From: an uncultured virus (IMG/VR IMGVR_UViG_3300027892_000017) | Lineage: Duplodnaviria > Heunggongvirae > Uroviricota > Caudoviricetes | Length of the DNA stretch: 64,000 nt | Virus record (IMG/VR): IMGVR_UViG_3300027892_000017 | Location: 1 to 64,000 of that record | Direction: 5' to 3' (one strand) | Translations under genes and position numbers: made by a program | Shown here: positions 6,969-61,293 of the stretch, one piece after another | Position numbering within the stretch: the stretch's first letter is position 1 | How the letters are laid out: each line of letters begins with the position of its first letter | The notes under the pieces: model-generated | The model's input: only the letters and a program-made list of their open reading frames with translations | Database searches by the model: none | What the model was told of the DNA's origin: nothing

Positions 6969-7333
6969 ACAACAATGTTACGGCTTTCGTAAGTATCAAC
7001 AATAGACACTACGTTATAGCCAAGTGTGCTTGTTTGTTCTCTATATGAATTTAAAACTTCTGCAACTACTTTTGCTAACTGCACATCGGTTAAACCCTTT
7101 AATGTGTCAATTAATTCAAATACACTAATGTTATCAAGTCTAGCTTGATTTAATAGTACAATGCCTGTACTACGTGCAGCCTCTTCATCAAATCCACGTT
7201 TTAAAAAGAAACCCAGTACTGCGTCAATTTGATTACTAGGATACGTTATTTGGTGAAGAAAAAATTTATCAAAAAAATCTCTTACTTCACGTGAATCAGA
7301 TCCAGTTTCTGTAATAGGTAAATTACTAGCCAT
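6965..7333 (-). CDS. Hypothetical protein
   Basis: 122-aa ORF translationally coupled between neighbours. Confidence 0.6.
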   Translation of the reverse strand: MASNLPITETGSDSREVRDFFDKFFLHQITYPSNQIDAVLGFFLKRGFDEEAARSTGIVLLNQARLDNISVFELIDTLKGLTDVQLAKVVAEVLNSYREQTSTLGYNVVSIVDTYESRNIVV

Positions 7334-7336
7334 ATT

Positions 7337-8407
7337 TTAAAAATCCACTTGATTTGCTTGGGTAGTACCACCATTGCCCGTTCTAGATGGGAATACTACA
7401 TTTTTTAATCCGCTCAATCCTGCAGCAGCAACAGCTATAGTTCCGCCAATAAGTAAGTTTCTTCCTTCTTGTCTAACACCTGCATTAGTTAAGCCTTTCG
7501 TGTTCTGATATGTATTAACTGCGGTTATGGCAGTTGATAAAAAGTTAGCTGGGCTCTCAAAAGCTTCACCACTAGCCAAACTATCCAACACATCAGCTGC
7601 ACCGTCTATAACGCCGCCTGGGCCAAATATACTTGATGTGCCACCACCAGCTGCGGATAGTGGGCTCGGTGATTTATCATAATGATCAACTGCAAAACCT
7701 TTCACTTTACCGCCTCTAATAGACCCAATATCATATGCCACTGCTTCATAAGCAACAGTCATGTTGTTTTCGGCGCCTGCTGATCCTTGATCGCTGCTTT
7801 GTACTTGATCGTGAGTAAATGAAGTGATTAATGGATTGATAAGAGTATAGCTCACATACTCTCGTTTGTTCAGTTGATACAAAACAATTTTATTAAAAAA
7901 GGGAATTGAACTTCCGTTATCAAAGCCGTACGTTGTTCTAATGTAGTTAGAACTTTTCATTGCAGTGCGACTGTATGCTCCAGGCGTTTTAGCTGCACTT
8001 GGATCCGCGTAATAGTATGCATAATAATTTTGCCACATGGTATTAATAATATGAGCGCGGTCATCATGAAATTTAATATTAATTGGCATCAGCTCATGAT
8101 CCATTTGTACAACTTTTTTTCTATTGTACTGATTAAGGGTAGTTGTTTTTAATGTGAATTTTGGAAGATCAGCACCCTTGACCAACAAACCAATTTCATT
8201 TTGATGTTGATATTTCAAGTTCAGTGACTTTAGAGCACTTGTATTGATGTCAAAGAATACGTGATATAGGAACTTACTCTTAGGAGCTAGCCTAAAATAG
8301 TCGTCTTGGAACGTCCTGGATGCGTGTTGCCACGATCCAAGATTACCCTTGGGGTTAGTTATGCCATTTACTAGCTGATCTAAGAAGCCGTTGTTTTTAC
8401 TTGCCAT
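7337..8407 (-). CDS. Tail-tube-fold protein (second gp19 paralog or gp54/gp48-like tube initiator)
   Basis: PKSKFLYHVFF...LPKF...NQYNRK...PINIKFHDD parallels PKLKYRFRVMF...P...YNSK...IVLRDD of the adjacent tube protein. Confidence 0.7.
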   Translation of the reverse strand: MASKNNGFLDQLVNGITNPKGNLGSWQHASRTFQDDYFRLAPKSKFLYHVFFDINTSALKSLNLKYQHQNEIGLLVKGADLPKFTLKTTTLNQYNRKKVVQMDHELMPINIKFHDDRAHIINTMWQNYYAYYYADPSAAKTPGAYSRTAMKSSNYIRTTYGFDNGSSIPFFNKIVLYQLNKREYVSYTLINPLITSFTHDQVQSSDQGSAGAENNMTVAYEAVAYDIGSIRGGKVKGFAVDHYDKSPSPLSAAGGGTSSIFGPGGVIDGAADVLDSLASGEAFESPANFLSTAITAVNTYQNTKGLTNAGVRQEGRNLLIGGTIAVAAAGLSGLKNVVFPSRTGNGGTTQANQVDF

Positions 8408-8456
8408 ACATATATTTATTGATTACAATTAACTGCGTATATAACTTTTAATCAAT

Positions 8457-8481
8457 AAAAAAGGCTGTTGCCAGCCTTTTT
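8457..8481 (-). terminator. Intrinsic terminator after the tail tube gene
   Basis: aaaaaaGGCTG ttgc CAGCCttttt; GCAA loop on the minus strand. Confidence 0.88.
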
Positions 8482-8482
8482 A

Positions 8483-9109
8483 TTAACGTCCTGCGCCAGT
8501 TGTTAAAGTATTTACAGTACGACCAATTGCTGTACCAACACCAGTGCCTTGTGGGCTTTGGATACAGTTATCTGGTTGAATTGTAATGTCAATAGTTGAC
8601 GGACCTTGTTCACCGTATGCTAAGTTTTGATAGTTAGCTGCGGTTAGGTAACAACCATAACATTCCCAAGTTTCTAATACTGTTGGTGTGCTGGCTCCGT
8701 TACCGCCGTCTAACATTTCAATACGTAGTGTGAACTTATAATCTACGCCTGAAGCTGCTGATGCTTGTTCAAAGAAGTCAAATTGTTTTTGTAGCTGTTC
8801 GCCAACTAATTTGCTTACTGAACCAGTTACGTCATCACGTAAAACAATTGCAACGGTACCCCATACTGGCTTACCTGCAAAGTTAATTTTACTGTTATAG
8901 ATTTCAATAGTCTGATTAGCAAAGGTTACTGTTGGGCGAGCAGCACTTTGTACTTGCTTAGTAAGTTCTGTTGTTGGTGTACTGACACCAAAGTTTTCAA
9001 ACATCACTCTAAAGCGATATTTGAGCTTTGGCATCAACAAGCCTTGTGCTGATGCGCTAGCATCTGATGCTAGCGGCACTGTGAATTTTGATAATGTTGC
9101 GATTGCCAT
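8483..9109 (-). CDS. gp19: Tail tube protein (gp19-like)
   Basis: 208 aa, directly downstream of the sheath; tube-type motifs (YRFRV.F, P.V, W.....LRDD, LETW...GC). Confidence 0.88.
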   Translation of the reverse strand: MAIATLSKFTVPLASDASASAQGLLMPKLKYRFRVMFENFGVSTPTTELTKQVQSAARPTVTFANQTIEIYNSKINFAGKPVWGTVAIVLRDDVTGSVSKLVGEQLQKQFDFFEQASAASGVDYKFTLRIEMLDGGNGASTPTVLETWECYGCYLTAANYQNLAYGEQGPSTIDITIQPDNCIQSPQGTGVGTAIGRTVNTLTTGAGR

Positions 9110-9142
9110 AATTAATATGCTCCGTTATTGATATTTATCATC

Positions 9143-12100
9143 TTATAGACCAGCTATTTCGCCAGTGTTCTTTAGGCGTAATGGAATGTAGATGAATTCA
9201 ACTGCTTTGACCGGTTCAATGGCCACATCAACATACAATTCGTTTCTGTCAATTCTACTTGGTGTATTGTTACTTTCGTCACAAACAACAATGTAGTCAT
9301 ATAGTGCTCGTTGACCTAATAGTTCTAGCATCAAACTTTCCACAGCACCCTTGATTTCATCACGAGTAATTTTATCGTTTGGTTCAAAAATGTATGGCTT
9401 AGCTAGAACACTTAGCTGTCTACGTAAGTAAATTACTAAACGTGCCACGTTGATTCTATCTAATGCGCTAGCATTTCTAGCACGAGTCTTCTGACCGTAA
9501 TTTACAAGACCCACACCTGTTAAGAATGTAATTGGATTAACTTTAACATCATACAGTGTATCACGTTGACCGTTATTTAAAGCAACTGCTGTAAACTCGC
9601 CTTCGTCATTAATATAACCAACTGCTGATGCGTTAGTAATACCGCCACGACGTGTGCCTGCTGGCGCAAACCATGGGTATGAAACGTTATCGCTTAGTGC
9701 AATAGTACGTAACATCATGTGACTTGGTGGCACAACCACGTTATTACCAAAGTTGTCACTTGTAAAGCCCCATGGATAGAACATAGCCATGTATTCGTCA
9801 AAACTTGCTGCGCCTAGATCATTGTCTTCCAATGCTAGTGCTGCGTTATTACCCCAGTTAACTAGACTTGTTGCATCGCTTGTTAAACGAGCTGGTGTGT
9901 CACCAACAACAAACGCTGTTAATCCGCGGTCATAGTTTAGTGTAATCATTTCACCAATCAACTCAGGATATCCTGGGCAAGCAATCAAGTTAAACACTCT
10001 TTGCTCTTCTTCACGGATCTCTTGGTTGCTGTTAACCAGTGCCTGTAATGATTGTACCACAACTTTACGTTGTGCTTTACGTCCAAATGTACCAGCACCA
10101 TTTTCTTGATTGCCAGCTTCACTAACCCAACGATTTGGATAATAACCAGCTTGTGTTTCACCTACTGCTCCGTTAACACGAGTGTTTATTGCAGTTACGT
10201 CAACATAATTACGTGCATAACGCTTAACGTTAAATCCTGAGCGGCGTAAGTTCCATAACAACATACCTTGTGGATATAGTGCTGGATCTGGAGCATCAAA
10301 GTCTAAGAAATTGCTTTCTAACATGTCAGCAATTAAACCAGGTTCATCGCTATTTGCGCCAGCTGTATTGTAACGAGCGTCAGCAAATAAAATACCATTT
10401 TCAGTACTTTGATCGGAACTGTCAACCAATTCCCATTTTAACGATACGCCGTTAAACTTATAAACTTGTGGATAATTTTCTGTATCGCTTGTGTCAATCC
10501 ATAAATCACCATTAGCAAGAGCTGTTTCGCCATCGCTTTGTGTTGTTGGCTCAGTAGCCGCAACAATTGGACCATTAACGTCGGTAGCCTTAACACCTGC
10601 GCCCAAATCAACTACTAATGGGTTTGAAGCATCTTTATAACCAACCCAAGTTGTTCCGTTGTGGATCATAATATCCACTTCGTCAACAATACTGTTGTAC
10701 CATAATGTACCGTCTGCTGTTAGTGAAGTTGGTGCTGTACCGCTTGCTGTAAAACGCAATGGTTCCCATAGCGTAGCAACGTAATCTGATGTAACATCGC
10801 CAGTTGGTGATGCATATAAATTAGTTGTTGCCGCAGTGCCTGTTACTGAAAATACTTTACTTAAAGGAGTTGCAGTGCCGTCAGTTAAGCGGAACTCGCC
10901 ACCTTTAGTGTGACTAATAACAATGCGATTCAAGCTATCTACTTCAGCAACAATATTAGCAAATCCTGCTGAGTTAATTGCTCCAGCAACCTTGTCTGCA
11001 TCAGACAAACTGCCAGTTAGCGCATTTCCAGTAGCAGAAGAACAAGTTACAGTGATTGCAGGTGCTAGTGTAGCACTACCAACAATACTTTCTGCAATTG
11101 AAAATGTGTTAGTTCCAGCAGTAAATTGCGCTGCAATTTTTGCTGATTTAATAATTGTTGTACCAACTGCTGAACGTCTAAAAATTCTAAAGTCAGCTAC
11201 ACGTGGTGAATCATCGGCACCGCTGTCTTCTTGTTCGTTTGTTTTAACAAACAATGATCCAACTGCTAAATTAGACCCGCCGCCTGTACGATCTAGGCCA
11301 TAAATTGCTGCTGTGCCGTCTGCATAAATTGGAGCTGGAACTGCTGCAAATGCATCTGTTGCTGAATTGTAACGCTTAACAGAGATCTTAGCGCCGCTGT
11401 TTGGTTCAGTTGTCTTGATCCATACAGAACCTGTTGGACGTGGAGCAGTGTTTGATGTCTTGAAGTTTGGAATGCTTGTGTGTGGCTGGATTGCCAATCT
11501 TGGAGCATAAAAAGTGCCAGGTGTAATACCTAATACTGTTGATACATTCATTGTGCCGCTAGCAATTACAACAGCATTTGAAGCTGTGCTATCTTCACTG
11601 TTTGCACCGCTTGCACCATTGGAATAAATTTCTAATCTACCAGCTGCACTAACGCCTGCGGTAATACCTTGCTGTGATAAAAGTGAAGCTGTTGGACCAG
11701 TATTGATTCTATCTGCCAATCCAGCTACAGTTGTTGCATTTGCTGTAACAGTAATACCGTTGATTGTAAATGCTTGACCGCTAGTAATTGCTGGGCTTGC
11801 AACAGTACCTTGCACTGTTGGCCATGAACTTGTCCAGTCATTGCTACCAACTTGTACCCACTGACCAGCACGATTTTTATAATAAACCTTGTCTGGGGCA
11901 GAGTAATCTGTAGTTAAGTCAGATAAACAAACAACTGCATAATCACCAATTGCGCCAATACTTGTCTTAGGAGCATAGTCGCTACCTGCGTAATCCACAA
12001 CCTTTGTTGTGTCAGTAATTACAAGTGGATTCTTCTTAGTAAATGTCTGGCCACTTAAATTTGTTGCAGTCTTAGTAGTACCGTTCCATTCAAAAATACC

Positions 12101-12535
12101 AAACGATGTAGTATTTGTGTCTAACCAGTATGTACCGTTTGAGGGGTCAGCTGCTGGCGGATTTGCCAATGCGTTAATTGACGCTAGGTCAATTCCAGCA
12201 CGTACAACGTATGCCCTGTTGCTTACGCCTAATAAGCTATAAGCCGCTTGCAAACCGTATTCATTTTGCTCGCCAGCATGGATTGGGTTGTTTGATGCGT
12301 CCGTTTTAAATACTGGGTCACCAAAAGTATCTACAAGATCCTTCTGGCTAGTAATTAAATATGTCTTTCCAACGTTAGTTGCCAGTGTACCTGGAGCAAT
12401 TCCTGTTCCCGCCCCGTTTTGCTTATTCGCTGCCGTTGCTACAATAATTAGAGGTACTGTACCTGGAGCGGCTGGGGTATAAAAGCTCTCATCGATAACT
12501 GTTACGCTTACGCCTGGTGATGATAGTGTTGCCAT
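9143..12535 (-). CDS. gp18: Tail sheath protein (gp18-like) with a large central insertion
   Basis: N-term LSSPGVSVTVIDES; C-term PWFAPAGTRRG, VNPI, GQKT, LDRINVARL, FEPND..TR, VVCDESNNTP..ID, IEPVKAVEFIYI. Confidence 0.97.
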   Translation of the reverse strand: MATLSSPGVSVTVIDESFYTPAAPGTVPLIIVATAANKQNGAGTGIAPGTLATNVGKTYLITSQKDLVDTFGDPVFKTDASNNPIHAGEQNEYGLQAAYSLLGVSNRAYVVRAGIDLASINALANPPAADPSNGTYWLDTNTTSFGIFEWNGTTKTATNLSGQTFTKKNPLVITDTTKVVDYAGSDYAPKTSIGAIGDYAVVCLSDLTTDYSAPDKVYYKNRAGQWVQVGSNDWTSSWPTVQGTVASPAITSGQAFTINGITVTANATTVAGLADRINTGPTASLLSQQGITAGVSAAGRLEIYSNGASGANSEDSTASNAVVIASGTMNVSTVLGITPGTFYAPRLAIQPHTSIPNFKTSNTAPRPTGSVWIKTTEPNSGAKISVKRYNSATDAFAAVPAPIYADGTAAIYGLDRTGGGSNLAVGSLFVKTNEQEDSGADDSPRVADFRIFRRSAVGTTIIKSAKIAAQFTAGTNTFSIAESIVGSATLAPAITVTCSSATGNALTGSLSDADKVAGAINSAGFANIVAEVDSLNRIVISHTKGGEFRLTDGTATPLSKVFSVTGTAATTNLYASPTGDVTSDYVATLWEPLRFTASGTAPTSLTADGTLWYNSIVDEVDIMIHNGTTWVGYKDASNPLVVDLGAGVKATDVNGPIVAATEPTTQSDGETALANGDLWIDTSDTENYPQVYKFNGVSLKWELVDSSDQSTENGILFADARYNTAGANSDEPGLIADMLESNFLDFDAPDPALYPQGMLLWNLRRSGFNVKRYARNYVDVTAINTRVNGAVGETQAGYYPNRWVSEAGNQENGAGTFGRKAQRKVVVQSLQALVNSNQEIREEEQRVFNLIACPGYPELIGEMITLNYDRGLTAFVVGDTPARLTSDATSLVNWGNNAALALEDNDLGAASFDEYMAMFYPWGFTSDNFGNNVVVPPSHMMLRTIALSDNVSYPWFAPAGTRRGGITNASAVGYINDEGEFTAVALNNGQRDTLYDVKVNPITFLTGVGLVNYGQKTRARNASALDRINVARLVIYLRRQLSVLAKPYIFEPNDKITRDEIKGAVESLMLELLGQRALYDYIVVCDESNNTPSRIDRNELYVDVAIEPVKAVEFIYIPLRLKNTGEIAGL

Positions 12536-12645
12536 TGTATGGTCTCTCCTAAGATTCTTCTTCTAAAGTATTTAGTGTTTGTTGGAGAAAACATAACGCA
12601 AACAAGCCCAGAAAAGGGACCAAAAAGGTGCGGAATAAATACTTT

Positions 12646-12987
12646 ATGGCAAGACCAATGTGTTTATGCGGGTTTAGACCGGCCGCAATCAACTATAAAA
12701 AAGATGGCCGCACTTATTATAGAAGTAAGTGTGAGGCATGCCTACGTCACGGCGGGGTAGCACACGGATTTCCCAAATGGTATCTAGATGGATACCGTCA
12801 AAAAGATACTTGTGAGAAATGCGGCTTTAAGAGCAAACACAAAGAGCAATTCAATGTGTTTCACATAGATGGCAATTTAACTAACAGTCGCCCCAGTAAT
12901 CTTAAGACGATATGTGCAAATTGTCAGAGAGTCCTACATAAAGAGGGCGTTCAGTGGCGACAGGGAGATCTTGTTCCGGACTTGTAA
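12646..12987 (+). CDS. Small Zn-finger/HNH-family protein
   Basis: CLCG...CEAC, then CEKCG...FHIDGNLTNSRPSNLKTICANCQ; start MARPMCLC 4 nt after ATAAATA (12635-12641). Confidence 0.8.
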   Translation: MARPMCLCGFRPAAINYKKDGRTYYRSKCEACLRHGGVAHGFPKWYLDGYRQKDTCEKCGFKSKHKEQFNVFHIDGNLTNSRPSNLKTICANCQRVLHKEGVQWRQGDLVPDL

Positions 12988-13594
12988 TTACTTGTTTTAC
13001 TTGCTGGTATAGACTGTCAATTGTCCCGTTATTATCTAAAATAATATCAAAATCAGTACCAATCCAAGCGGTTTCGCTTGCATGAATCTTCTTCATTTTG
13101 AGATCATTCATAGCAACATTTGATCCGGCGTTTGCATCCAATGCTGTTTGATACCAGTCTGGGAGTTCTCCTCGCTGTACCCAAGCAATAATGCCGCCAG
13201 CATCTTTAATTGATTTAATTTCGTTAGGAAATCTACAGTCGCTGATGACTACGTGGTCGCGACTAGTTCTAAGTTTGTTCTCTAAACTAGCAATCCAAAT
13301 ATCATCATGGAACGCTTTGCGACAAACTTCTGTACCCCAATACTGTAGAACCCATCTAGGAGTAAGGCTAGGCATATCTAATCTATTTGCCCACCACGGA
13401 TCTACTTGTTCACGCCATTCTCGGGCTTCTTTAGTGCGCCCTTCTAACATAGTGCGGTCCCAACCAAATACATGTGCCACTGCATCTTTAAGGGTGCTAG
13501 CAAATGATTCTCGTCTAAATTCGTGGAAGTTTGTTAGATAGTCCGCAACAGTGTCTTTGCCCGAACCAATAAAGCCGCATATACCAATAATCAT
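12902..13594 (-). CDS. Deoxynucleoside monophosphate kinase (T4 gp1-like)
   Basis: MIIGICGFIGSGKDT P-loop, SFA..LKD, TPR.VLQ.WGTEVCR, ISDCRFPNE, HASE. Confidence 0.95.
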   Translation of the reverse strand: MIIGICGFIGSGKDTVADYLTNFHEFRRESFASTLKDAVAHVFGWDRTMLEGRTKEAREWREQVDPWWANRLDMPSLTPRWVLQYWGTEVCRKAFHDDIWIASLENKLRTSRDHVVISDCRFPNEIKSIKDAGGIIAWVQRGELPDWYQTALDANAGSNVAMNDLKMKKIHASETAWIGTDFDIILDNNGTIDSLYQQVKQVITSPEQDLPVATERPLYVGLSDNLHISS

Positions 13595-13617
13595 TGTACT
13601 CTCCTAAAGATAATACA

Positions 13618-13646
13618 ATTTTATATGAATATTAATGCAGTGTCAA
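13618..13646 (-). promoter_or_regulatory. Sigma70-type promoter for the dNMP kinase
   Basis: TTGACA (13646-13641), 17-nt spacer, TAAAAT (13623-13618); AGGAG SD follows. Confidence 0.8.
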
Positions 13647-13650
13647 GAGT

Positions 13651-14034
13651 TTATACGCCGTATTTGTTCTTTTTGCGAGCTGGAACTGGACTAACTTTAT
13701 TGGTATCGTCCAATTCTTTACTTGTCATATCGCCATGGTTTAAATCTTGATAATTCGCACCAACTGCCTTGTATGCTTGCTTGAGCATTTCTTGTTCTTC
13801 TTTAGTATATGGATGAGTGGACTTCCTCTTACCAATCCAACTTTTTGCCTTCATTTCTGTTGGTAGTGGGTCTTTGCCGTTAGCGCCGGCAACAGCCATT
13901 CCCAGTCTATAAGAAGTATAGTCGCCACTAACACGCTCTGAATCGTTATAGGTGTTTAGACCGGCAGTTGCTTGAGCCTGTCTTTTAGAGATTGCCTTTT
14001 GACTTGATTCAGAAATGATATCTAAAATTTTCAT
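13651..14034 (-). CDS. Hypothetical protein, possible internal head protein
   Basis: ORF 13651..14043; likely start MKILDIISE at 14034, just after the gp13 stop. Confidence 0.65.
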   Translation of the reverse strand: MKILDIISESSQKAISKRQAQATAGLNTYNDSERVSGDYTSYRLGMAVAGANGKDPLPTEMKAKSWIGKRKSTHPYTKEEQEMLKQAYKAVGANYQDLNHGDMTSKELDDTNKVSPVPARKKNKYGV

Positions 14035-14035
14035 A

Positions 14036-14806
14036 TTATCCAATTACCAATGTATAACCAGTACCGCCAGCAATGTAAAGCTCTATTTCTTTATCTAATT
14101 TTTCAAGTTCTTCTTTACCAGCAGATTTTAGATCTGCCCCGTTTAGTCCGCCTGCCCCGCCAGGTCCAGCAATCTGACTAAATTTGCCACGAGCTTCGCC
14201 TAGCATAATTTTGCAAGTTGCTAGTGTATAGTCATACAGCCAGCTCTTGGCATATAAATCTTGTAACAGTATATAGTCTGGTCTGTAGTTGTAGCCACGA
14301 ATCATTACTTGTTCGCCTTCACTGAAAGGACGCTGTAAAATTCTCAATGTGTGGGTAGTGGGAATCCATTGGAATTCAATATATGCTCCAAACATACGAC
14401 CCACCATTTCTTGATATTGAGCAAACATATCGTATGTTGCGATACCTCCCAACATTGTACTGTTTAACAAGTAGGTATTTGTGTAGGCTAAATTGAACGG
14501 TTCAAACTGTGTACCGCCGCTGCCGCCCGCTGTTCTACTGCCGATTGTTCTACGGAAAATACTACGAACTTCTATAATCTCGTCAGGTAATCTGTAATCA
14601 TTAACATCTTGCGCTAGCTCTAAGAAATAATAAGATTCTTCTACGGCACCGCTACTTCGCTGACGATATCGTGCTAGAGCACGATTTAAAGAGGTTTCGT
14701 AGTGCTTGGGATCAAGCTCAACGTCAACCATTCCGTCGCCCAACATGGTACGGACGTAGTCATAAACTTTTTCTCTTTCAGCTAAAATTGTACTTGTATT
14801 TGACAT
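14036..14806 (-). CDS. gp13: Neck protein (gp13-like head-tail adaptor)
   Basis: LG...VDVEL, WLYDYTLA.CK..LG..RGKF..I.GPGG...LNG..L...G.EE.EKL. Confidence 0.9.
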   Translation of the reverse strand: MSNTSTILAEREKVYDYVRTMLGDGMVDVELDPKHYETSLNRALARYRQRSSGAVEESYYFLELAQDVNDYRLPDEIIEVRSIFRRTIGSRTAGGSGGTQFEPFNLAYTNTYLLNSTMLGGIATYDMFAQYQEMVGRMFGAYIEFQWIPTTHTLRILQRPFSEGEQVMIRGYNYRPDYILLQDLYAKSWLYDYTLATCKIMLGEARGKFSQIAGPGGAGGLNGADLKSAGKEELEKLDKEIELYIAGGTGYTLVIG

Positions 14807-44898: not shown

Positions 44899-45273
44899 TT
44901 AGATAGCTGTTAATTGAATGTAATCTTCTGATGAATCGTTTACCAAATACCAAGTGTAACGATTGCCACTGAAGTCAATAGCTGTACGCTTGTTTAACTT
45001 TCTAATAGCAACAGAAATGTCAGCACCCGGGTTTGTGTAACCTAGCATTACTACTTGACCTTCGTCTGTGATTGAGCTTACTAACAAGCATTTGCCTGTA
45101 CCATCAGCGTTGGTAACTCTGTAATTACGTGAGCCTACTTGTTTTTCAATGTAACCTGCTTTAGCTGTTCCAAAGCCAGGAATACGTGCAGATACTTTAA
45201 TACCTGCAGATGTTGTGGCGTAATCGCCGAATACCAATGTACCAAGTACATCATCTTTTACTGGACGTCCCAT
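44899..45273 (-). CDS. Small virion protein directly downstream of the capsid gene (possible decoration protein)
   Basis: 124-aa ORF with strong SD and its own late box; GYIEKQVGSRNY.V; role inferred from position. Confidence 0.6.
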   Translation of the reverse strand: MGRPVKDDVLGTLVFGDYATTSAGIKVSARIPGFGTAKAGYIEKQVGSRNYRVTNADGTGKCLLVSSITDEGQVVMLGYTNPGADISVAIRKLNKRTAIDFSGNRYTWYLVNDSSEDYIQLTAI

Positions 45274-45350
45274 TTGTTTTCTCCTTGAGTTAATGGCGTT
45301 CTAGGCCTACGCGGCGGGTACCGCATAAATCTTCTAGACAAAGTATTTAT
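45274..45350 (-). promoter_or_regulatory. Late promoter followed by a structured leader
   Basis: ATAAATA at 45344-45350; UCUAG/CUAGA outer stem; UAUGCGG/CCGCGUA inner hairpin; SD AAGGAG. Confidence 0.6.
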
Positions 45351-55461: not shown

Positions 55462-56283
55462 TCACTTGCCGCCTCGGCCAGTACCTTTGAATGGGTCTAC
55501 TCTTCCACCTGACGAATCAGCTGCTTTTTGTAATATACTAAATGGATCAGTTGGGTCTACTCCAGATAAATCTGTTTTTTCAACATCTTTAGGGACGTTG
55601 CCCGTTGCCACTTGTGTTACTGCTGTACCAACATTGACCAACCATGGAGCTAGTTCTGGTATCGTACCAATTCCAGTAATCATAACACCAAATGTATCAA
55701 CTAACCATTTTTTGCCAGCTTCTGTACTAAACCCAACTAGTAAAGCTGTTTCAAGACCTTTTGAACCAACTTGTTTTACAATGGCAGCTAATTCAGCTGA
55801 ACGGTTTCCAGGGAACTGTTTAATAATCCAAGGAACAGACGATGCAATTTTGCCTAACAGTAATTTATTTGCAGCCCACATGGTAACTTTAGGTGCAATA
55901 ATCGCGGTAATAAATTTACCACGCAGTGTACGAAGTTGTTCTTCATAGTCTGGCGCACTCTTATCTAATTTGCCAGCTTGATAATTGTAATTGATAACTT
56001 CTTTGGCAATATCCAATGCATAAAATAATTTCATTGTTTGACTGCCGTAATGCTGGGCTGCTATTTCAGCGGCCCTTGCATACTGTGCTTTGGTAGCAAC
56101 CGATGTCGCATTACCAGTTACTTTTTCCACTCCCCTAGCAACCCATGAAGTTGCGTCGTCAGCAGTGTCCTTAGCAACACTAGCAGCTTTAGGAACAGCA
56201 GATCTAGCACCCTTAAAGGCATTATAACCAGTCTTTAATGCTGATAAAAATCCAACTTCAGAAACAATTTGATAAACTTTCAT
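55462..56283 (-). CDS. Hypothetical late protein with amphipathic/hydrophobic helices
   Basis: Likely start MKVYQIVSE at 56283, 7 nt after ATAAATA (56291-56297). Confidence 0.7.
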   Translation of the reverse strand: MKVYQIVSEVGFLSALKTGYNAFKGARSAVPKAASVAKDTADDATSWVARGVEKVTGNATSVATKAQYARAAEIAAQHYGSQTMKLFYALDIAKEVINYNYQAGKLDKSAPDYEEQLRTLRGKFITAIIAPKVTMWAANKLLLGKIASSVPWIIKQFPGNRSAELAAIVKQVGSKGLETALLVGFSTEAGKKWLVDTFGVMITGIGTIPELAPWLVNVGTAVTQVATGNVPKDVEKTDLSGVDPTDPFSILQKAADSSGGRVDPFKGTGRGGK

Positions 56284-56316
56284 AGTATTGTATTTATTAT
56301 TCCAGTGGTATGTTCT

Positions 56317-56798
56317 TTGTGAGCTCACGCTCACAAGTGTTTTATGCTTCGCTTTGCTACGCATAAACACCTTTTCTTTAACTAAAGTATTTAATAGAAT
56401 TAACTGCGAAGCAGTTTAAATATTATCTAGATTGTTTAGTCACACTTGGCCCTGGCGGGCCAAAGTTTTGAACATTATCTGAGTTGCATAGTTCACTTAG
56501 CGTTGTGGCGATTGCAGAGGCGGTCATCCTGTACCTCGAGCCACGTCTTTATATGACGGCGGTTTGTGTGGTATACGCTAACATACACACAAACGTAGGG
56601 AATACTATCCCTTCATTTAGCCTTGTAAATTTGTTTTAAACAGCAAAATCAGTTTATGGAAGGCATATCCGATCATCGTCCTGTTAAGGATAGTTGCTGA
56701 GTACTCTTGGCGGCTAGAGTTTTCCGTCCGGGCGTAATTAAACCCCTTGTCATGGGCACAGGATTTTAGCTAGTGCTTGCTTAATACCGCTTGTGAGC
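56317..56798 (-). ncRNA. Candidate large structured ncRNA downstream of the GIY-YIG gene
   Basis: No credible ORF in an otherwise gene-dense genome; at least 10 stems, a 6-bp loop pseudoknot and 9-bp complementary ends; G-U pair and GNRA loop favour the minus strand. Confidence 0.7.
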
Positions 56799-57224
56799 CT
56801 AAGATTTTAATATATGTGAGCCGTGTACACGCACAGAAATCTGTCCGTTATACCACTCGTCTGATTCTAACACTTTATTGAGGAATTGTTCTCTGGCCTC
56901 GATATAAGAGCATTGCGCCTTTGATGTACAGTAGTATAAAATTTCACGTTTGAAATTTTCTTTGCCTAAGAGTTCTATATCTTTAGATAAGTTAGGGCTG
57001 CTACCATAGTAGTCACGCCAATCACTATCAATTTTGCTTCTGATTTTCTTCTTTTTCTTGGAGCCATTCTTTAACTTAACAACTTTGTAAGTTGTTTTAG
57101 CGAATTTTGCAAGTTTTTTGCCTATGTACTTTTTGCCAGAGATTGTATTGGTTATCAAATATACGAAGCCTACGCAGTCTTCAGGTAGTTCTTCTATTTG
57201 TGTATCTTGATAAGTCCAATGCAT
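56799..57224 (-). CDS. Small GIY-YIG-family nuclease (Seg-like catalytic domain only)
   Basis: GFVYLITN..SGKKYIGKK, YYGSS, GKENFKREIL, conserved E (YIEAREQ), WYNG; Lys-rich insert. Confidence 0.88.
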   Translation of the reverse strand: MHWTYQDTQIEELPEDCVGFVYLITNTISGKKYIGKKLAKFAKTTYKVVKLKNGSKKKKKIRSKIDSDWRDYYGSSPNLSKDIELLGKENFKREILYYCTSKAQCSYIEAREQFLNKVLESDEWYNGQISVRVHGSHILKS

Positions 57225-57227
57225 CCA

Positions 57228-57482
57228 TTATGTATCGGATGCTGGTGGCGTGCCTTGTTGTTTTTGGATTTGTTTCTTTTCTGCTTTAATTTGATCCAGT
57301 TCATGACGCCATTCTTGTATATGAATGCGTCTCAAACTGCATATTCGCCTAATTTCGCTGAGCCAGTATCTAGTTGCAATACCGCTACGCCGCGTGCCTT
57401 TAGAAATCCATTTCTGGTTTTCTCTAAAATAATTGTTGAAAGCGGTCATGAGCTGACTATGCAACTCTTCATCACGTTTCAC
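57228..57482 (-). CDS. Small basic protein, histone H1-like Hc1-family-like
   Basis: F..Y..EN.K...KG.R.SG...R..LSEI...C..RR..IQE resembles the Hc1 helical hairpin. Confidence 0.5.
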   Translation of the reverse strand: MKRDEELHSQLMTAFNNYFRENQKWISKGTRRSGIATRYWLSEIRRICSLRRIHIQEWRHELDQIKAEKKQIQKQQGTPPASDT

Positions 57483-57670
57483 TTTTTAGCCTTTTTAATA
57501 ATGTCTATTGTTACATCATTGATTTTTGAATCTTGAATAGACCTAATATGCAAGCGTTCTGCACAGTTTCTGATATCGTCATACAATGCTAAATCGCCTG
57601 TTTCTTCCAAGGTTAACTTTGCAACTTCGTGCAAGACAATAACAGCATCTATAAGCGCCATGTTTCTCAT
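57479..57670 (-). CDS. Hypothetical protein
   Basis: 63-aa ORF with ATGA overlaps on both sides. Confidence 0.6.
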   Translation of the reverse strand: MRNMALIDAVIVLHEVAKLTLEETGDLALYDDIRNCAERLHIRSIQDSKINDVTIDIIKKAKK

Positions 57671-59445
57671 TCAGTTACCTCTAAGTCATTAGCATAACTG
57701 GTGTATCCATTTTCTTTAATGACTCTTAGCACATTGTTAACTCGCCCAATTAGTTCGTCTTTGTGGCTAATCAAATAAATGTTTTTATTGCGTTCTCTGG
57801 CCATCTTTTTCAGCACTGCCAGCGCACCTTCAACACCCGATGCATCTAGTCCGTTGTCAATCAACTCGTCGATAAACAACAAGTTGATCTGTTGATACAA
57901 ACTTTCCCATACATCACGGAATGCCCACGACAACGACAAGATTAAACGATTACGCTCACCGCGCGATAAGTTGTCAAAGTCTAAATCTTGACCAAGTTGT
58001 GTAATTTCTACAGATAGGTCATTTTGAAATAGCACAGTATGCGGCAATCCCATCTTATCAAGATAGTAAGTGAGTCTATTATTCAAATATGCCAAATTTT
58101 GATCAATAATTTTCTTACGTATAAAGCTATCCTTGCTGGTTAACAATTTTAACAGGAAATCTTGATGATCTCTAATACTTGAGAGCTCGTTTACATGATC
58201 CCAACTTACTTCTTGTATAGCAGTATTTTTTAATTCGTCAATTTGTTCTTGGTAAGGGTCAATTTCGTCAGCCCGTTTAACTAGCTGATCTTCTAATGTA
58301 GTTAGGTTGTTCTGATGTTTAAGTGCTTGCTCAACCGAATCGTAATATGTATTAGGTCGTCCGTTGATTTCGCCAATGACAGCTAACTCGTCTTTAACTT
58401 TATTACAATCTGCTGTTACTTTATCAAGATACTTTTGAGCTTCTGTTATATTTTTAGTAGCAGTTGTAGTAAGTTCTTCGTGCTTATGATCGTGCAATGC
58501 TTGTTCGCAAGCATGACATGTTTTATTTGCTAGACTTTCTAGTTCTCTTGTATACTTTGCTACACTTTTTTCTGCTTGACCAATTGCAGACTCTAATGTT
58601 GCTTTTTCTTTGGTTAAACTTTTTACTTTTTGTGAAACTTCTTCATATACTTTTAATTTTGCATGTTGTTCTAACTCTTTTTCAATATCAACACTTAAAA
58701 GTTCTTGAATTGCCTTACTGATTTTATCCAAATCAGTAGTTTGTTGTGCATACCAAGCAGTCTGTCTAGTAATTAAACTGTCAATGCTAAACTGAATTTT
58801 TTCATTGGATTTTTTTGTAGCTTCTATCTCAGCACTTTCTTGTATAATTTGATCTTTAGTAATTTTTGACAATTCTTTAAGAGCTTCAGCTTTTTCACTG
58901 AGAATAGTAATGCCCAATAGCTGCTCAATAATCATGCGTTGTTCATTTGCCCGCATACTTAAGAACGGCTCTGTGTAAGTGTTTAACGCAACAATATGTT
59001 TGAACATGTCGTGACTCATGCCCAACAAATCATCTAAGTCTTTCTGAGTTTCACGCATGTCGCCTTGTGCGTCATCGCTTTCTTCGGTATCTTGTTCTTG
59101 ACCGTTAACATAAAACTTGAGAATATTGGGACGACGACCACGCTCAACACGGTATTCAATACCATCTTTTTCAAAATGTAGTGTTACTAACATATTTTTA
59201 GCATTGATTTTATTAATCAAGTTGTCTTTTTTAATGTTAGTAAGTGCATTTCCGTATAAGGCAAAGCTCAGTGCATTAACAATGGTAGTTTTGCCAGTAC
59301 CGTTGCGACTTCCGTTGTCGTCACCGCCTTGATCTAAGTTTTCACCTAAAACTAGTGTAAGATGCTCCTTGCCAAAATCTACGGCTTGGGTTTGATTGCC
59401 CACGCTCATGAAGTTTTTTACTGTTAAATCTTTTATCTTGATCAT
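57667..59445 (-). CDS. gp46: Recombination ATPase (gp46, SbcC/Rad50-like)
   Basis: KNFMSVG, Walker A NGTGKTT, zinc hook CHAC, signature LSRGE, Walker B FIDELID, ISH. Confidence 0.97.
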   Translation of the reverse strand: MIKIKDLTVKNFMSVGNQTQAVDFGKEHLTLVLGENLDQGGDDNGSRNGTGKTTIVNALSFALYGNALTNIKKDNLINKINAKNMLVTLHFEKDGIEYRVERGRRPNILKFYVNGQEQDTEESDDAQGDMRETQKDLDDLLGMSHDMFKHIVALNTYTEPFLSMRANEQRMIIEQLLGITILSEKAEALKELSKITKDQIIQESAEIEATKKSNEKIQFSIDSLITRQTAWYAQQTTDLDKISKAIQELLSVDIEKELEQHAKLKVYEEVSQKVKSLTKEKATLESAIGQAEKSVAKYTRELESLANKTCHACEQALHDHKHEELTTTATKNITEAQKYLDKVTADCNKVKDELAVIGEINGRPNTYYDSVEQALKHQNNLTTLEDQLVKRADEIDPYQEQIDELKNTAIQEVSWDHVNELSSIRDHQDFLLKLLTSKDSFIRKKIIDQNLAYLNNRLTYYLDKMGLPHTVLFQNDLSVEITQLGQDLDFDNLSRGERNRLILSLSWAFRDVWESLYQQINLLFIDELIDNGLDASGVEGALAVLKKMARERNKNIYLISHKDELIGRVNNVLRVIKENGYTSYANDLEVTE

Positions 59446-60455
59446 AGGCTATTATAAATGGCCAATAAAGTCTTGGCGCTGTAAGTGTCGCTTTCAATAC
59501 TGACAAGCTGATTGCTGACAATCGTGTCAACACTCTCAAATGCTTTAATATCAATATCTGTATTAATTTCTACATCCTTTTTCTCGGCAATTAAAGTTAA
59601 TTCTCTAATGTCATAATCGCCTAAGAATTTTTCTTTGATAAAACTAGCTTCTTCATAGCTAATGTCAATGTCTAGTGTAACACGAAGATGCTGTTTGGGC
59701 AAGATCAATGTGCTCGCTTCGTCGATTAATCGACTCAATGTAACTGTCCTAAATGTGGGTTGTCCTGGCCAGTTGTAATATTCCGGCTGCTTGCCCCATT
59801 CCATAATCATCATGCCACGGTCATCATCCCATGCATCTGCATAATTGTGCGGAAATGCATTACCAATATAGTGCATATTTTTACGTACTTGACGTTTATG
59901 GAAGTGTCCGCTGAATCCCAATTCGTAATTTGCAAATTGATCCAACTGTAATTCACCATGGTCTGGCATCTGTACCATTGCGTTCATAAAGAAACTGGGC
60001 AACTCAAAGTGACCAAATATATACTTGCCACCTTTTTTGCCTATCTTTTTCCATTCTTCGCCCACGAGCCACGGGCATAAAGTAACGTCGCCGATAGTAG
60101 TAGGTTCATGAACAACAGTAATACCAGGAATATATTTTCCAAACTCAACTGAGTGAATATCCCGCTTGTCTTTGTAATACAAATCATGATTACCAGGGAA
60201 AAAGTAAAATGTATCGAACGCCGCACCCAACTTTTCCAAGGCCCGCAAACTATAGTCCATAGTAGTGATGTTGAGGCTATTCCGATTGTGATGCCAATCA
60301 CCCATAAAAATTCCAGTATCACAACCTTCCTCCTTTGCTTTAGCAATGTACCAGTCTACAAAATCTTCACAATCCTTATTGTGAACACTGCTATTTGACT
60401 TTAATCCAAAATGAATATCTGTAAAGCAGGCAACTTTTTTAAATAAATTACTCAC
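59442..60455 (-). CDS. gp47: Recombination nuclease (gp47, SbcD/Mre11-like)
   Basis: DIHFG, GDWHH, PGNHD, FGHFE, SGHFH; likely GTG start at 60455 overlapping the gp55 stop. Confidence 0.95.
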   Translation of the reverse strand: MSNLFKKVACFTDIHFGLKSNSSVHNKDCEDFVDWYIAKAKEEGCDTGIFMGDWHHNRNSLNITTMDYSLRALEKLGAAFDTFYFFPGNHDLYYKDKRDIHSVEFGKYIPGITVVHEPTTIGDVTLCPWLVGEEWKKIGKKGGKYIFGHFELPSFFMNAMVQMPDHGELQLDQFANYELGFSGHFHKRQVRKNMHYIGNAFPHNYADAWDDDRGMMIMEWGKQPEYYNWPGQPTFRTVTLSRLIDEASTLILPKQHLRVTLDIDISYEEASFIKEKFLGDYDIRELTLIAEKKDVEINTDIDIKAFESVDTIVSNQLVSIESDTYSAKTLLAIYNSL

Positions 60456-61293
60456 TAGGCGTTCCTTCATTAAATCGTTTTTGTGCGGCAGCATGTTCAC
60501 CAGCGCCAGTTCTACTGTAACTAGGATTCATTCCATTCATTTCCAACATGTCATCTCTAATATTTTGATTGCGTTTTTCAATGTTGATAATGCGTACAAA
60601 GCTATTAGTCACCGCCGCAGTAAAATAAGCAAACGGGTTATTACTTTTTGCTTCGTTAAACTGCAATCCAATTTGAGTTAACTGTAATATTGCCTGTGCT
60701 CGCATCTCGTCATTATATGTGTAACCACGTACATTGCCGCGGGTAGCATATCGTTCACATAGTTTAATGTACATGCGAGCTAATGTATTGGTAATTTGCC
60801 CGTGATCTTTGTCAAATTTACCTTTAACTAAATCACCCTTCCAATGACTTTTACCCACACATATTAGTTCGTCTTTGTCATCAAATTTCCAGTGTTGGAA
60901 AGGTGGAAAGTTAACTTTATCTCTGTGATCTGCTAGGCTTTTGGGATTCTTTTTGCGAGTACCGTTAAGGGGAACATGATCAAACGTCATAATCCTAAAG
61001 ATCAAATCCGTTTTAGCAATCTTCTTATAGTCCACTTCGCAGTCGGCTTGTTTGACTTTTTCACCAGCACGTTTGCGAGTTTGATAATCCAAATCACCTA
61101 TTCTTTTGGCTTGATTTCTTTTAGCTTCGGCAACCGTGCGTATGTTTATTTTGTCCAAACTAGGCAAAATAATATCGTATTGGTGATATTCAGGCTTTGC
61201 ATAGCTTGAATATGTATTTTTGGACTTGTGTATTTCTTCTAGTAAGTCTTTGTTGTTTAAGTAATTTACTTTCGGTGGTGTTATTATTGTCAT
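60448..61293 (-). CDS. gp55: Late transcription sigma factor (gp55-like)
   Basis: NYLNNKDLL, GYTYNDEM..QAI, FNEAKSNNPFAYFT....NSFVR.I..EK; T4 gene order 55-47-46. Confidence 0.9.
   Translation of the reverse strand: MTIITPPKVNYLNNKDLLEEIHKSKNTYSSYAKPEYHQYDIILPSLDKINIRTVAEAKRNQAKRIGDLDYQTRKRAGEKVKQADCEVDYKKIAKTDLIFRIMTFDHVPLNGTRKKNPKSLADHRDKVNFPPFQHWKFDDKDELICVGKSHWKGDLVKGKFDKDHGQITNTLARMYIKLCERYATRGNVRGYTYNDEMRAQAILQLTQIGLQFNEAKSNNPFAYFTAAVTNSFVRIINIEKRNQNIRDDMLEMNGMNPSYSRTGAGEHAAAQKRFNEGTPSE

Follow-up and report, generated by a model that had tools for sequence, protein, structure and literature searches.

A Large Multi-Pseudoknotted RNA of Uncultured Freshwater Phages Extends the Polynucleobacter-1 Motif

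The window considered here is a 64-kb stretch of DNA, i.e., the first part of the 132,440-nt record of an uncultured virus (IMG/VR IMGVR_UViG_3300027892_000017) that is estimated to be 38% complete. The element under study is a long non-coding stretch on the minus strand, located between a small gene encoding a GIY-YIG nuclease (stop codon TAG at 56801-56799) and the next same-strand gene, which starts at 56283. An earlier sequence-only reading of the window had placed in this gap a large pseudoknotted RNA, sense to the nuclease gene and possibly working together with its product. The gap itself was borne out (515 nt), and neither a tRNA nor a tmRNA was found in the window. Two small minus-strand open reading frames (ORFs) separate the GIY-YIG gene from an AAA_23/SMC_N gene, and plus-strand baseplate genes come after the 55462-56283 gene. 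The coordinates of all features are listed in Table 1.

The 5′ third of the RNA corresponds to a known motif. The covariance model RF01718 (Polynucleobacter-1 RNA) matches 56638-56781 end to end (model positions 1-141 of 141) and on the minus strand only, with 86.1 bits against a gathering score of 37. No other Rfam family exceeded 19 bits in 56100-57300 at permissive thresholds (E up to 10), and the 3′ part of the RNA, about 320 nt, matched no Rfam family. There is no sign of a group I intron either: no intron family was found up to E = 10, and the flanking ORFs are separate genes. The call of an RNA holds, but the sequence-only reading did not anticipate that its 5′ 144 nt already belong to RF01718. 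In a table of the 2010 survey (Weinberg et al. 2010, PMC2864571), the motif is entered as a likely RNA with a likely cis-regulatory role ("y") and a question mark for a switch, with Burkholderiales and fresh water/estuary as its taxa and habitat; 16 representatives are given in a supplementary table. The main text of a 2023 survey of viral structured RNAs (PMC10690425) names neither Polynucleobacter nor GIY-YIG, and its supplementary tables may list parts of the element.

Homologues were collected with two sequence patterns. With a loose pattern for the Rfam core, 80 records were fetched, of which 17 contained true RF01718 and 63 were chance matches. The matching region scores 55.6-118.2 bits in these 17 further viral records, and in their alignment conserved blocks and compensatory changes extend far past the Rfam match. 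A pattern for the 3′ part (GGTACNGNNNNACCGCC, a gap, and AARTRTG) occurs in at least 120 viral stretches; among the 80 fetched, the 3′ domain of the RNA is present in 78, whereas the other two are chance matches in coding sequence. Viral contigs with the RNA are up to 354,680 nt long. Alignment A2, obtained after removal of near-duplicates, comprises 67 distinct sequences, which share 46-73% identity with the window across 640 nt.

Helices were derived from mutual information and stacked complementary columns, and 104 pairs in 27 helices were scored on A2. Over the 67 sequences, standard pairs fill 85.0% of the cells, compared with 71.0% in shuffled alignments and 34-42% when the pairing is slid by 1-3 columns. 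Changes on both sides are seen in 84 pairs (65 in shuffles) and 973 cells (301 in shuffles), the covariation score is 0.403 (0.171 in shuffles), and none of 500 shuffles matched any of these four measures. The slid controls weigh more than the shuffles, because related sequences can beat shuffles without any structure. The large pseudoknotted RNA that was proposed to end at the hairpin 56317-56336 is therefore borne out by covariation. With regard to the strand, the alignment has 651 G-U/U-G cells and 283 A-C/C-A cells, an excess which, like the strand of the Rfam match, shows that the RNA is sense to the nuclease gene, as had been read; thermodynamic z-scores fail to separate the strands (−3.61 for minus and −3.06 for plus).

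Nearly all individual stems in the sequence-only reading are supported by covariation, namely CAGCAA/TTGCTG (56641-56699), the long hairpin, GTGGC/GCCAC enclosing GAGG/CCTC, TTGGCCC/GGGCCAA, AACTGC/GCAGTT, and the last hairpin, in which 93.6% of the cells are paired and 7/7 pairs are changed on both sides. So is the pseudoknot between UUAGCG and CGCUAA, all six pairs of which covary (in one of them, CG occurs 47 times, UA 12 times, and AU 3 times). The proposed stem CGTC/GACG (56544-56558) found no support; its segment 56553-56557 pairs with 56523-56527 instead, forming a second pseudoknot inside the invariant GGUAC..ACCGCC loop. The middle pairs of this pseudoknot alternate between UA (34) and CG (33) and between GC (40) and AU (23). 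GGTAC and ACCGCC are invariant in 67/67 sequences, a figure that is partly circular since the collection pattern held these letters. The helices of the RF01718 model hold and covary as well (alignment columns 197-223, 305-383, and 342-377; 92-97% paired, both sides being changed). The fold is extended beyond the 5′ end of the Rfam match by helix H0, in which three of the five pairs changed on both sides and which starts 8 nt past the GIY-YIG stop codon. Thus, positions 56317-56790 of the minus strand are the full-length form of the Polynucleobacter-1 RNA, which makes the element only partly new.

Several candidate pairings were rejected. Two helices did not hold in the form in which they were drawn, namely a closing helix GGC/GCC, with 37.8% of its cells paired, and the outer portion of hairpin 56337-56370, with 56.7%. 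The hairpin AGGGA/UCCCU (56597-56612), which was also in the sequence-only reading, contains single covarying pairs but is only 38.3% paired as aligned. A pseudoknot between the loop of the 56647-56674 hairpin and the junction AAGGCUAAA was discarded, as the mean longest complementary run was 3.89 for own and 3.89 for permuted combinations.

Table 1. Genes and RNA elements around the non-coding stretch (window coordinates)
Feature	Position	Strand	Support
Late sigma factor	60448-61293	-	phrog_12791
Metallophos protein, gp47 position	59442-60500	-	domain match
AAA_23/SMC_N protein, gp46 position	57667-59445	-	domain match
GIY-YIG gene, 141 aa; syntenic with the RNA	56799-57224	-	PF19835 1.2e-33; phrog_447 5.2e-38
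Whole structured RNA, ~474 nt, first covarying helix to last hairpin	56317-56790	-	alignment A2
Helix H0: GCGGU (56786-56790) with GCCGC (56710-56714, loop of CUCU/AGAG hairpin)	56710-56790	-	83.8% paired
5′ domain, RF01718 match, 144 nt	56638-56781	-	covariance model, 86.1 bits
Long hairpin, loop UUAGCG (56576-56581) in pseudoknot 1	56564-56592	-	87-91% paired; 9/10 pairs with changes on both sides
Pseudoknot 2: GUCAU (56553-56557) with AUGAC (56523-56527)	56523-56557	-	97.3% paired
Helices UGGC/GCCA and GAGGU/GCCUC around the invariant core	56506-56543	-	87.9% and 100% paired
Pseudoknot 1, 3′ strand CGCUAA, pairs with 56576-56581	56497-56502	-	91.8% paired
Module 1: hairpin with ACUC and variable 7-mer X1 AGAUAAU (56474-56480)	56470-56494	-	per-sequence folds
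Hairpin CUUUGGCC/GGCCAAG between modules 1 and 2	56445-56465	-	85.4% paired
Module 2: CUA/UAG mini-helix, AUCU and variable 7-mer X2 AGAUAAU (56422-56428)	56422-56439	-	88.6% paired
Hairpin AACUGC/GCAGUU	56402-56416	-	inner three pairs 87% paired
Last two hairpins (56337-56370; 56317-56336), probable 3′ terminus	56317-56370	-	
Downstream gene, 273 aa, no known family, fast-evolving, outside RNA	55462-56283	-	

The linkage between the RNA and the GIY-YIG gene was counted in 71 testable loci, i.e., the 80 fetched loci minus the two chance matches and seven that are cut off upstream. A GIY-YIG homologue (41-84% identical) lies upstream of the RNA in 67 of them, the distance between its stop codon and the RNA core being mostly 218-397 nt, with another gene inserted in three loci. 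In two loci (L168; L177 = L119), a 173-176-aa PD-(D/E)XK endonuclease of PF24608 fills the nuclease slot, and two further loci have unrelated genes there. PF19835 is absent from all four of these records, which are fragments, and the same search finds the gene of the window. The PD-(D/E)XK gene at L119:970-1491 also matches phrog_244, which is labelled RusA-like resolvase.

The protein was rightly described as a bare GIY-YIG domain. PF19835 (116.3 bits, E 1.2e-33, cut-off 25 bits) covers residues 3-129 on profile positions 1-123 of 123, and no other family is found in the 141 aa. The gene is present as a single copy in the 132-kb record. Conservation of the protein is high: 48 positions are near-invariant among 60 distinct sequences. 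Many phage records, as well as phrog_447, carry the annotation "NAD synthetase" for GIY-YIG homologues, a label that looks wrong for a PF19835 GIY-YIG domain. By tblastn, members of the protein family were found in 450 GenBank phage records, none of them reaching 60% identity, including cyanomyoviruses, Methylophilales phage Melnitz, and Acidovorax phage ACP17. In two of these records that were opened, the gene is found in other contexts, there is no long gap 3′ of it, and RF01718 is absent even at E = 1. In addition, a blastn search with the RNA against 50,697 GenBank phage records gave no match, even at E = 1.

These distributions bear on the ribonucleoprotein of RNA and GIY-YIG protein that was proposed in the sequence-only reading, with the RNA as the source of the specificity missing from the tail-less nuclease. 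The adjacency in 67/71 loci, a fold that begins 8 nt past the stop codon, the lack of a DNA-binding domain in the protein, and the short variable segments in the RNA would all be accounted for in this way. However, the RNA exists without the protein in the four viral loci mentioned above and in nine Polynucleobacter loci (see below), and, in the reverse direction, the protein exists in the 450 GenBank records with no RNA by blastn and with RF01718 absent in the two scanned. The Lys-rich insert that had been pointed out is indeed present but is a feature of the family, and this basic stretch is also seen in the two homologues examined from RF01718-free phages; moreover, variable segments of 4-7 nt that are duplicated are unlike known guides. 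A functional protein-RNA pair is thus unsupported, such a ribonucleoprotein appears very improbable, and the tempting reading of an RNA-guided GIY-YIG nuclease is removed. The link between the two is one of synteny, not dependence, and we regard the GIY-YIG protein as a small nuclease that is conserved in this lineage of phages and whose gene simply adjoins the RNA.

A different role for the same gene would be that of a selfish nuclease, its slot being a homing-endonuclease site from which the RNA sequence in rival phages is targeted, so that the linkage is parasitic. Conserved RNA genes are classic homing targets, and segB of T4 reportedly lies in a tRNA cluster. Here, two unrelated nuclease families share the slot directly upstream of the RNA, and PHROG relatives are labelled homing endonuclease. 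Nevertheless, the gene is near-fixed rather than sporadic and its product is strongly conserved, no DNA-binding tail is joined to the catalytic domain, the family occurs once per genome in the 450 GenBank phages and in other contexts, and the identity between the window and the related locus L133 drops at the downstream gene and not at the nuclease. Homing is therefore considered unlikely. The exchange for a PD-(D/E)XK enzyme suggests that both nucleases may share a DNA-processing role beside gp46/gp47.

The gene 3′ of the RNA is variable. Between two phages, the downstream 273-aa protein is only 35% identical while about 1.5 kb upstream of it is ~99% identical; the non-coding stretch of the same relative is 99% identical, but so is the gp46 region, so that this pair alone is weakly informative on the RNA. 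This gene (55462-56283) is missing from 21 of the 71 loci, and its position, which separates the replication/recombination genes from the baseplate genes, is hypervariable. Among the 71 loci, the next gene is convergent in 21, with the length of the non-coding stretch kept, and on the same strand in 49, where it is fast-evolving and without a family. A cis-regulatory leader or riboswitch of the downstream gene, as implied by the 2010 table, could be reconciled with the same-strand loci. However, conserved structure continues for about 355 nt from the RF01718 motif to the next start codon, the downstream genes belong to no family, and the convergent genes mean that the RNA is not a 5′ leader; this possibility is extremely improbable. 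Neither of the flanking genes, the GIY-YIG gene or the downstream one, is thus an obligate neighbor of the RNA.

Two side observations concern the neighborhood. An 84-aa protein without a family is encoded between the gp46 and GIY-YIG genes (57228-57482, minus strand), and similar small ORFs, as judged by eye from ORF lists, occupy this position in many related loci. A second Rfam match in the window, to RF02980 (freshwater-2 RNA), is located at 45271-45345 on the minus strand (53.6 bits, cut-off 49.9).

The RNA is also found in bacteria. In the genome collection, the 3′ pattern was found only in small contigs of metagenome-assembled genomes (MAGs), with seven matches, one of which is probably due to chance. 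RF01718 is present in 13 of the 121 Polynucleobacter genomes searched, several times on large contigs or whole chromosomes. Nine of ten Polynucleobacter loci examined (chromosome or MAG) have no GIY-YIG gene, and the tenth is a phage-like MAG contig. In those nine, the RNA and a conserved gene of 145 aa point away from each other; the product of this gene matches DUF6641 in the two loci tested. The 3′ domain of the bacterial copies, about 350 nt long, is homologous to that of the phages; pseudoknot 1 is kept in it with quite different letters, and the core reads GGAGA..ACCGCC. In one copy, a site resembling a promoter lies about 80 nt upstream of the RNA, and the last hairpin resembles a terminator.

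With regard to the genomic setting of these copies, two 20-kb regions were annotated, in which the island lies at about 9100-14400 (L292) and about 7200-10900 (L293). Besides the DUF6641 gene, they encode an AAA ATPase, a tyrosine recombinase of 188 aa, and proteins of unknown type, with a tRNA-Phe 7-9 kb from the RNA islands. The Polynucleobacter RNA island may be an integrative element related to the biology of the phages. As Polynucleobacter has cultured strains, the transcript, its partners, and a phenotype should be directly testable. The alignment establishes the fold, strand, and extent of the RNA, and the element is common and widely distributed, being carried by at least 120 viral contigs as well as by the Polynucleobacter genomes mentioned above.

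Parts of 55900-57500 were detected in 19 RNA-library runs of 18 studies (lake, river, freshwater, and estuary metatranscriptomes). A 999-nt contig from a related strain spans 56360-57359, i.e., the RNA, the GIY-YIG gene, and the gene upstream, and carries a compensatory change pair at 56544 and 56505. These contigs are a weak hint of transcription. Promoters and terminators predicted in the window region were no more numerous than expected by chance, and the late-promoter motif TATAAATA was found 3′ of the RNA in only two of 71 loci (WATAAATA in 12 of 71).

The 3′ domain contains two look-alike modules, 52 nt apart, which share a variable word. Module 1 reads AAGUG(A)AC..CAACUC-AGAUAAU and module 2 reads AAGUGUGAC..CAAUCU-AGAUAAU. 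Module 1 folds as a hairpin with the variable word in or beside its loop, whereas a 3-bp helix of module 2 includes the first two letters of the word as paired bases. The variable positions of the two modules change in parallel and to identical letters, not to complementary ones. X1 equals X2 in 60 of the 67 phage sequences, in nine concordant types (permuted mean 13.3, maximum 24 in 1000 permutations), although these counts are inflated by shared ancestry and independent changes are fewer than rows; four of the seven exceptions are, in our reading, alignment shifts. In the chromosomal copies, a variable tetranucleotide is the same in both modules in 9 of 11 cases, with six types and invariant flanks, and the variable words are hypervariable even among near-identical copies. 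A conserved box upstream of the bacterial copies does not, as judged by eye, vary in step with their variable word. With regard to a guide-like segment, the RNA contains two short variable segments (4-7 nt) changing together, and no target was found for them in the loci or in the 132-kb record. In one viral copy (L127, at about 1760-1800), module 1 and the following hairpin, about 90 nt, are missing, as if the two repeated modules had recombined.

Repeats of this kind also recall replication origins. ColE1 RNA II and the T4 origins are models for a structured primer or R-loop transcript, and iterons are repeats that change together within a replicon. By analogy, the RNA could be a replication-origin transcript with iteron-like direct repeats, which the islands would copy in order to use the replication machinery of the phage. 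Both the sharing of the element between phages and small islands with an integrase and an AAA ATPase and the concerted change of the repeats would be in line with such a role, but no initiator gene was identified and the repeats reside inside covarying RNA helices; an origin appears quite improbable. Taken together, the evidence argues against the ribonucleoprotein and the cis-regulatory leader, while homing and an origin remain at low odds.

We therefore favor the explanation that the element is probably a stand-alone, multi-pseudoknotted RNA of about 475 nt that acts in trans and contains two equivalent sites, the GIY-YIG gene being merely adjacent. Its carriers are large uncultured freshwater T4-like phages, and a homologue of about 500 nt resides in integrase-bearing Polynucleobacter islands. 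In phages, the RNA would be made by read-through or processing of the gp46/GIY-YIG transcript, and in bacteria it would be transcribed from its own promoter. The resulting RNA would act in trans, with modules 1 and 2 binding a single sequence-specific partner, which could be a dimeric protein or a nucleic acid present in two copies; the variable 7-mer is the same within a genome and different between genomes. From the pattern of letters, we read the modules as two putatively equivalent recognition sites for one such partner. A further step, which is unlikely to be correct, would be to regard them as programmable specificity elements of a new type of two-site recognition RNA, in which the short variable words set the partner and which is used by both sides of a phage-island conflict. 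If this were true, the opponents would be the large freshwater phages on the one hand and, on the other, the small integrative islands that their Polynucleobacter hosts carry. The paired variable words provide a concrete handle for experiments.

Several observations weigh against this explanation. The adjacency to the GIY-YIG gene is high, so that a functional tie specific to a clade is possible, and three of the drawn helices failed (38-57% paired). In four RNA-library runs, the contigs cover the RNA together with flanking genes and might be carried-over DNA; neither ends nor strand nor level can be read from them, and stretches that they leave uncovered have no significance. The joint variation of the two modules still includes the effect of shared ancestry, though there are nine concordant types. 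A search of the loci for a complementary partner specific to their own variable word gave no own-specific peak, and the 132-kb record holds no complement to the word with 0-1 mismatches besides the locus itself and a few near-matches.

Compared with known systems, the locus resembles IscB and its omega RNA (HEARO) in that a nuclease gene lies beside a large structured RNA. It differs from them in that the RNA is 3′ of the gene and has no long variable guide, and from these and other RNA-guided nucleases in that neither protein nor RNA depends on the presence of the other. The GIY-YIG protein shares the catalytic N-terminal domain of the T4 Seg nucleases (SegE family, PF19835, 1.2e-33), but it is a 141-aa protein without the DNA-binding tail and is encoded by a near-fixed single-copy gene. 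With its length of hundreds of nucleotides, many helices and pseudoknots, and association with phages and mobile islands, the RNA is similar to GOLLD, ROOL, OLE, and HEARO, some of whose traits are described in the abstract of 10.1101/2024.12.08.627333. It matches none of them (E up to 10), and it joins the few very large bacterial and phage RNAs without an assigned function. With regard to RF01718 itself, taxa and habitat agree, the present element being found in lake and river metatranscriptomes and Polynucleobacter genomes, whereas the cis-regulatory label of PMC2864571 does not fit. The model represents the 5′ third only; conservation and covariation extend about 10 nt further upstream, through helix H0, as well as about 320 nt further downstream, and bring in two pseudoknots and two repeated modules. 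Thus, the 141-nt motif, listed as a candidate cis-regulator since 2010, is the front third of a multi-pseudoknot RNA of about 0.5 kb.

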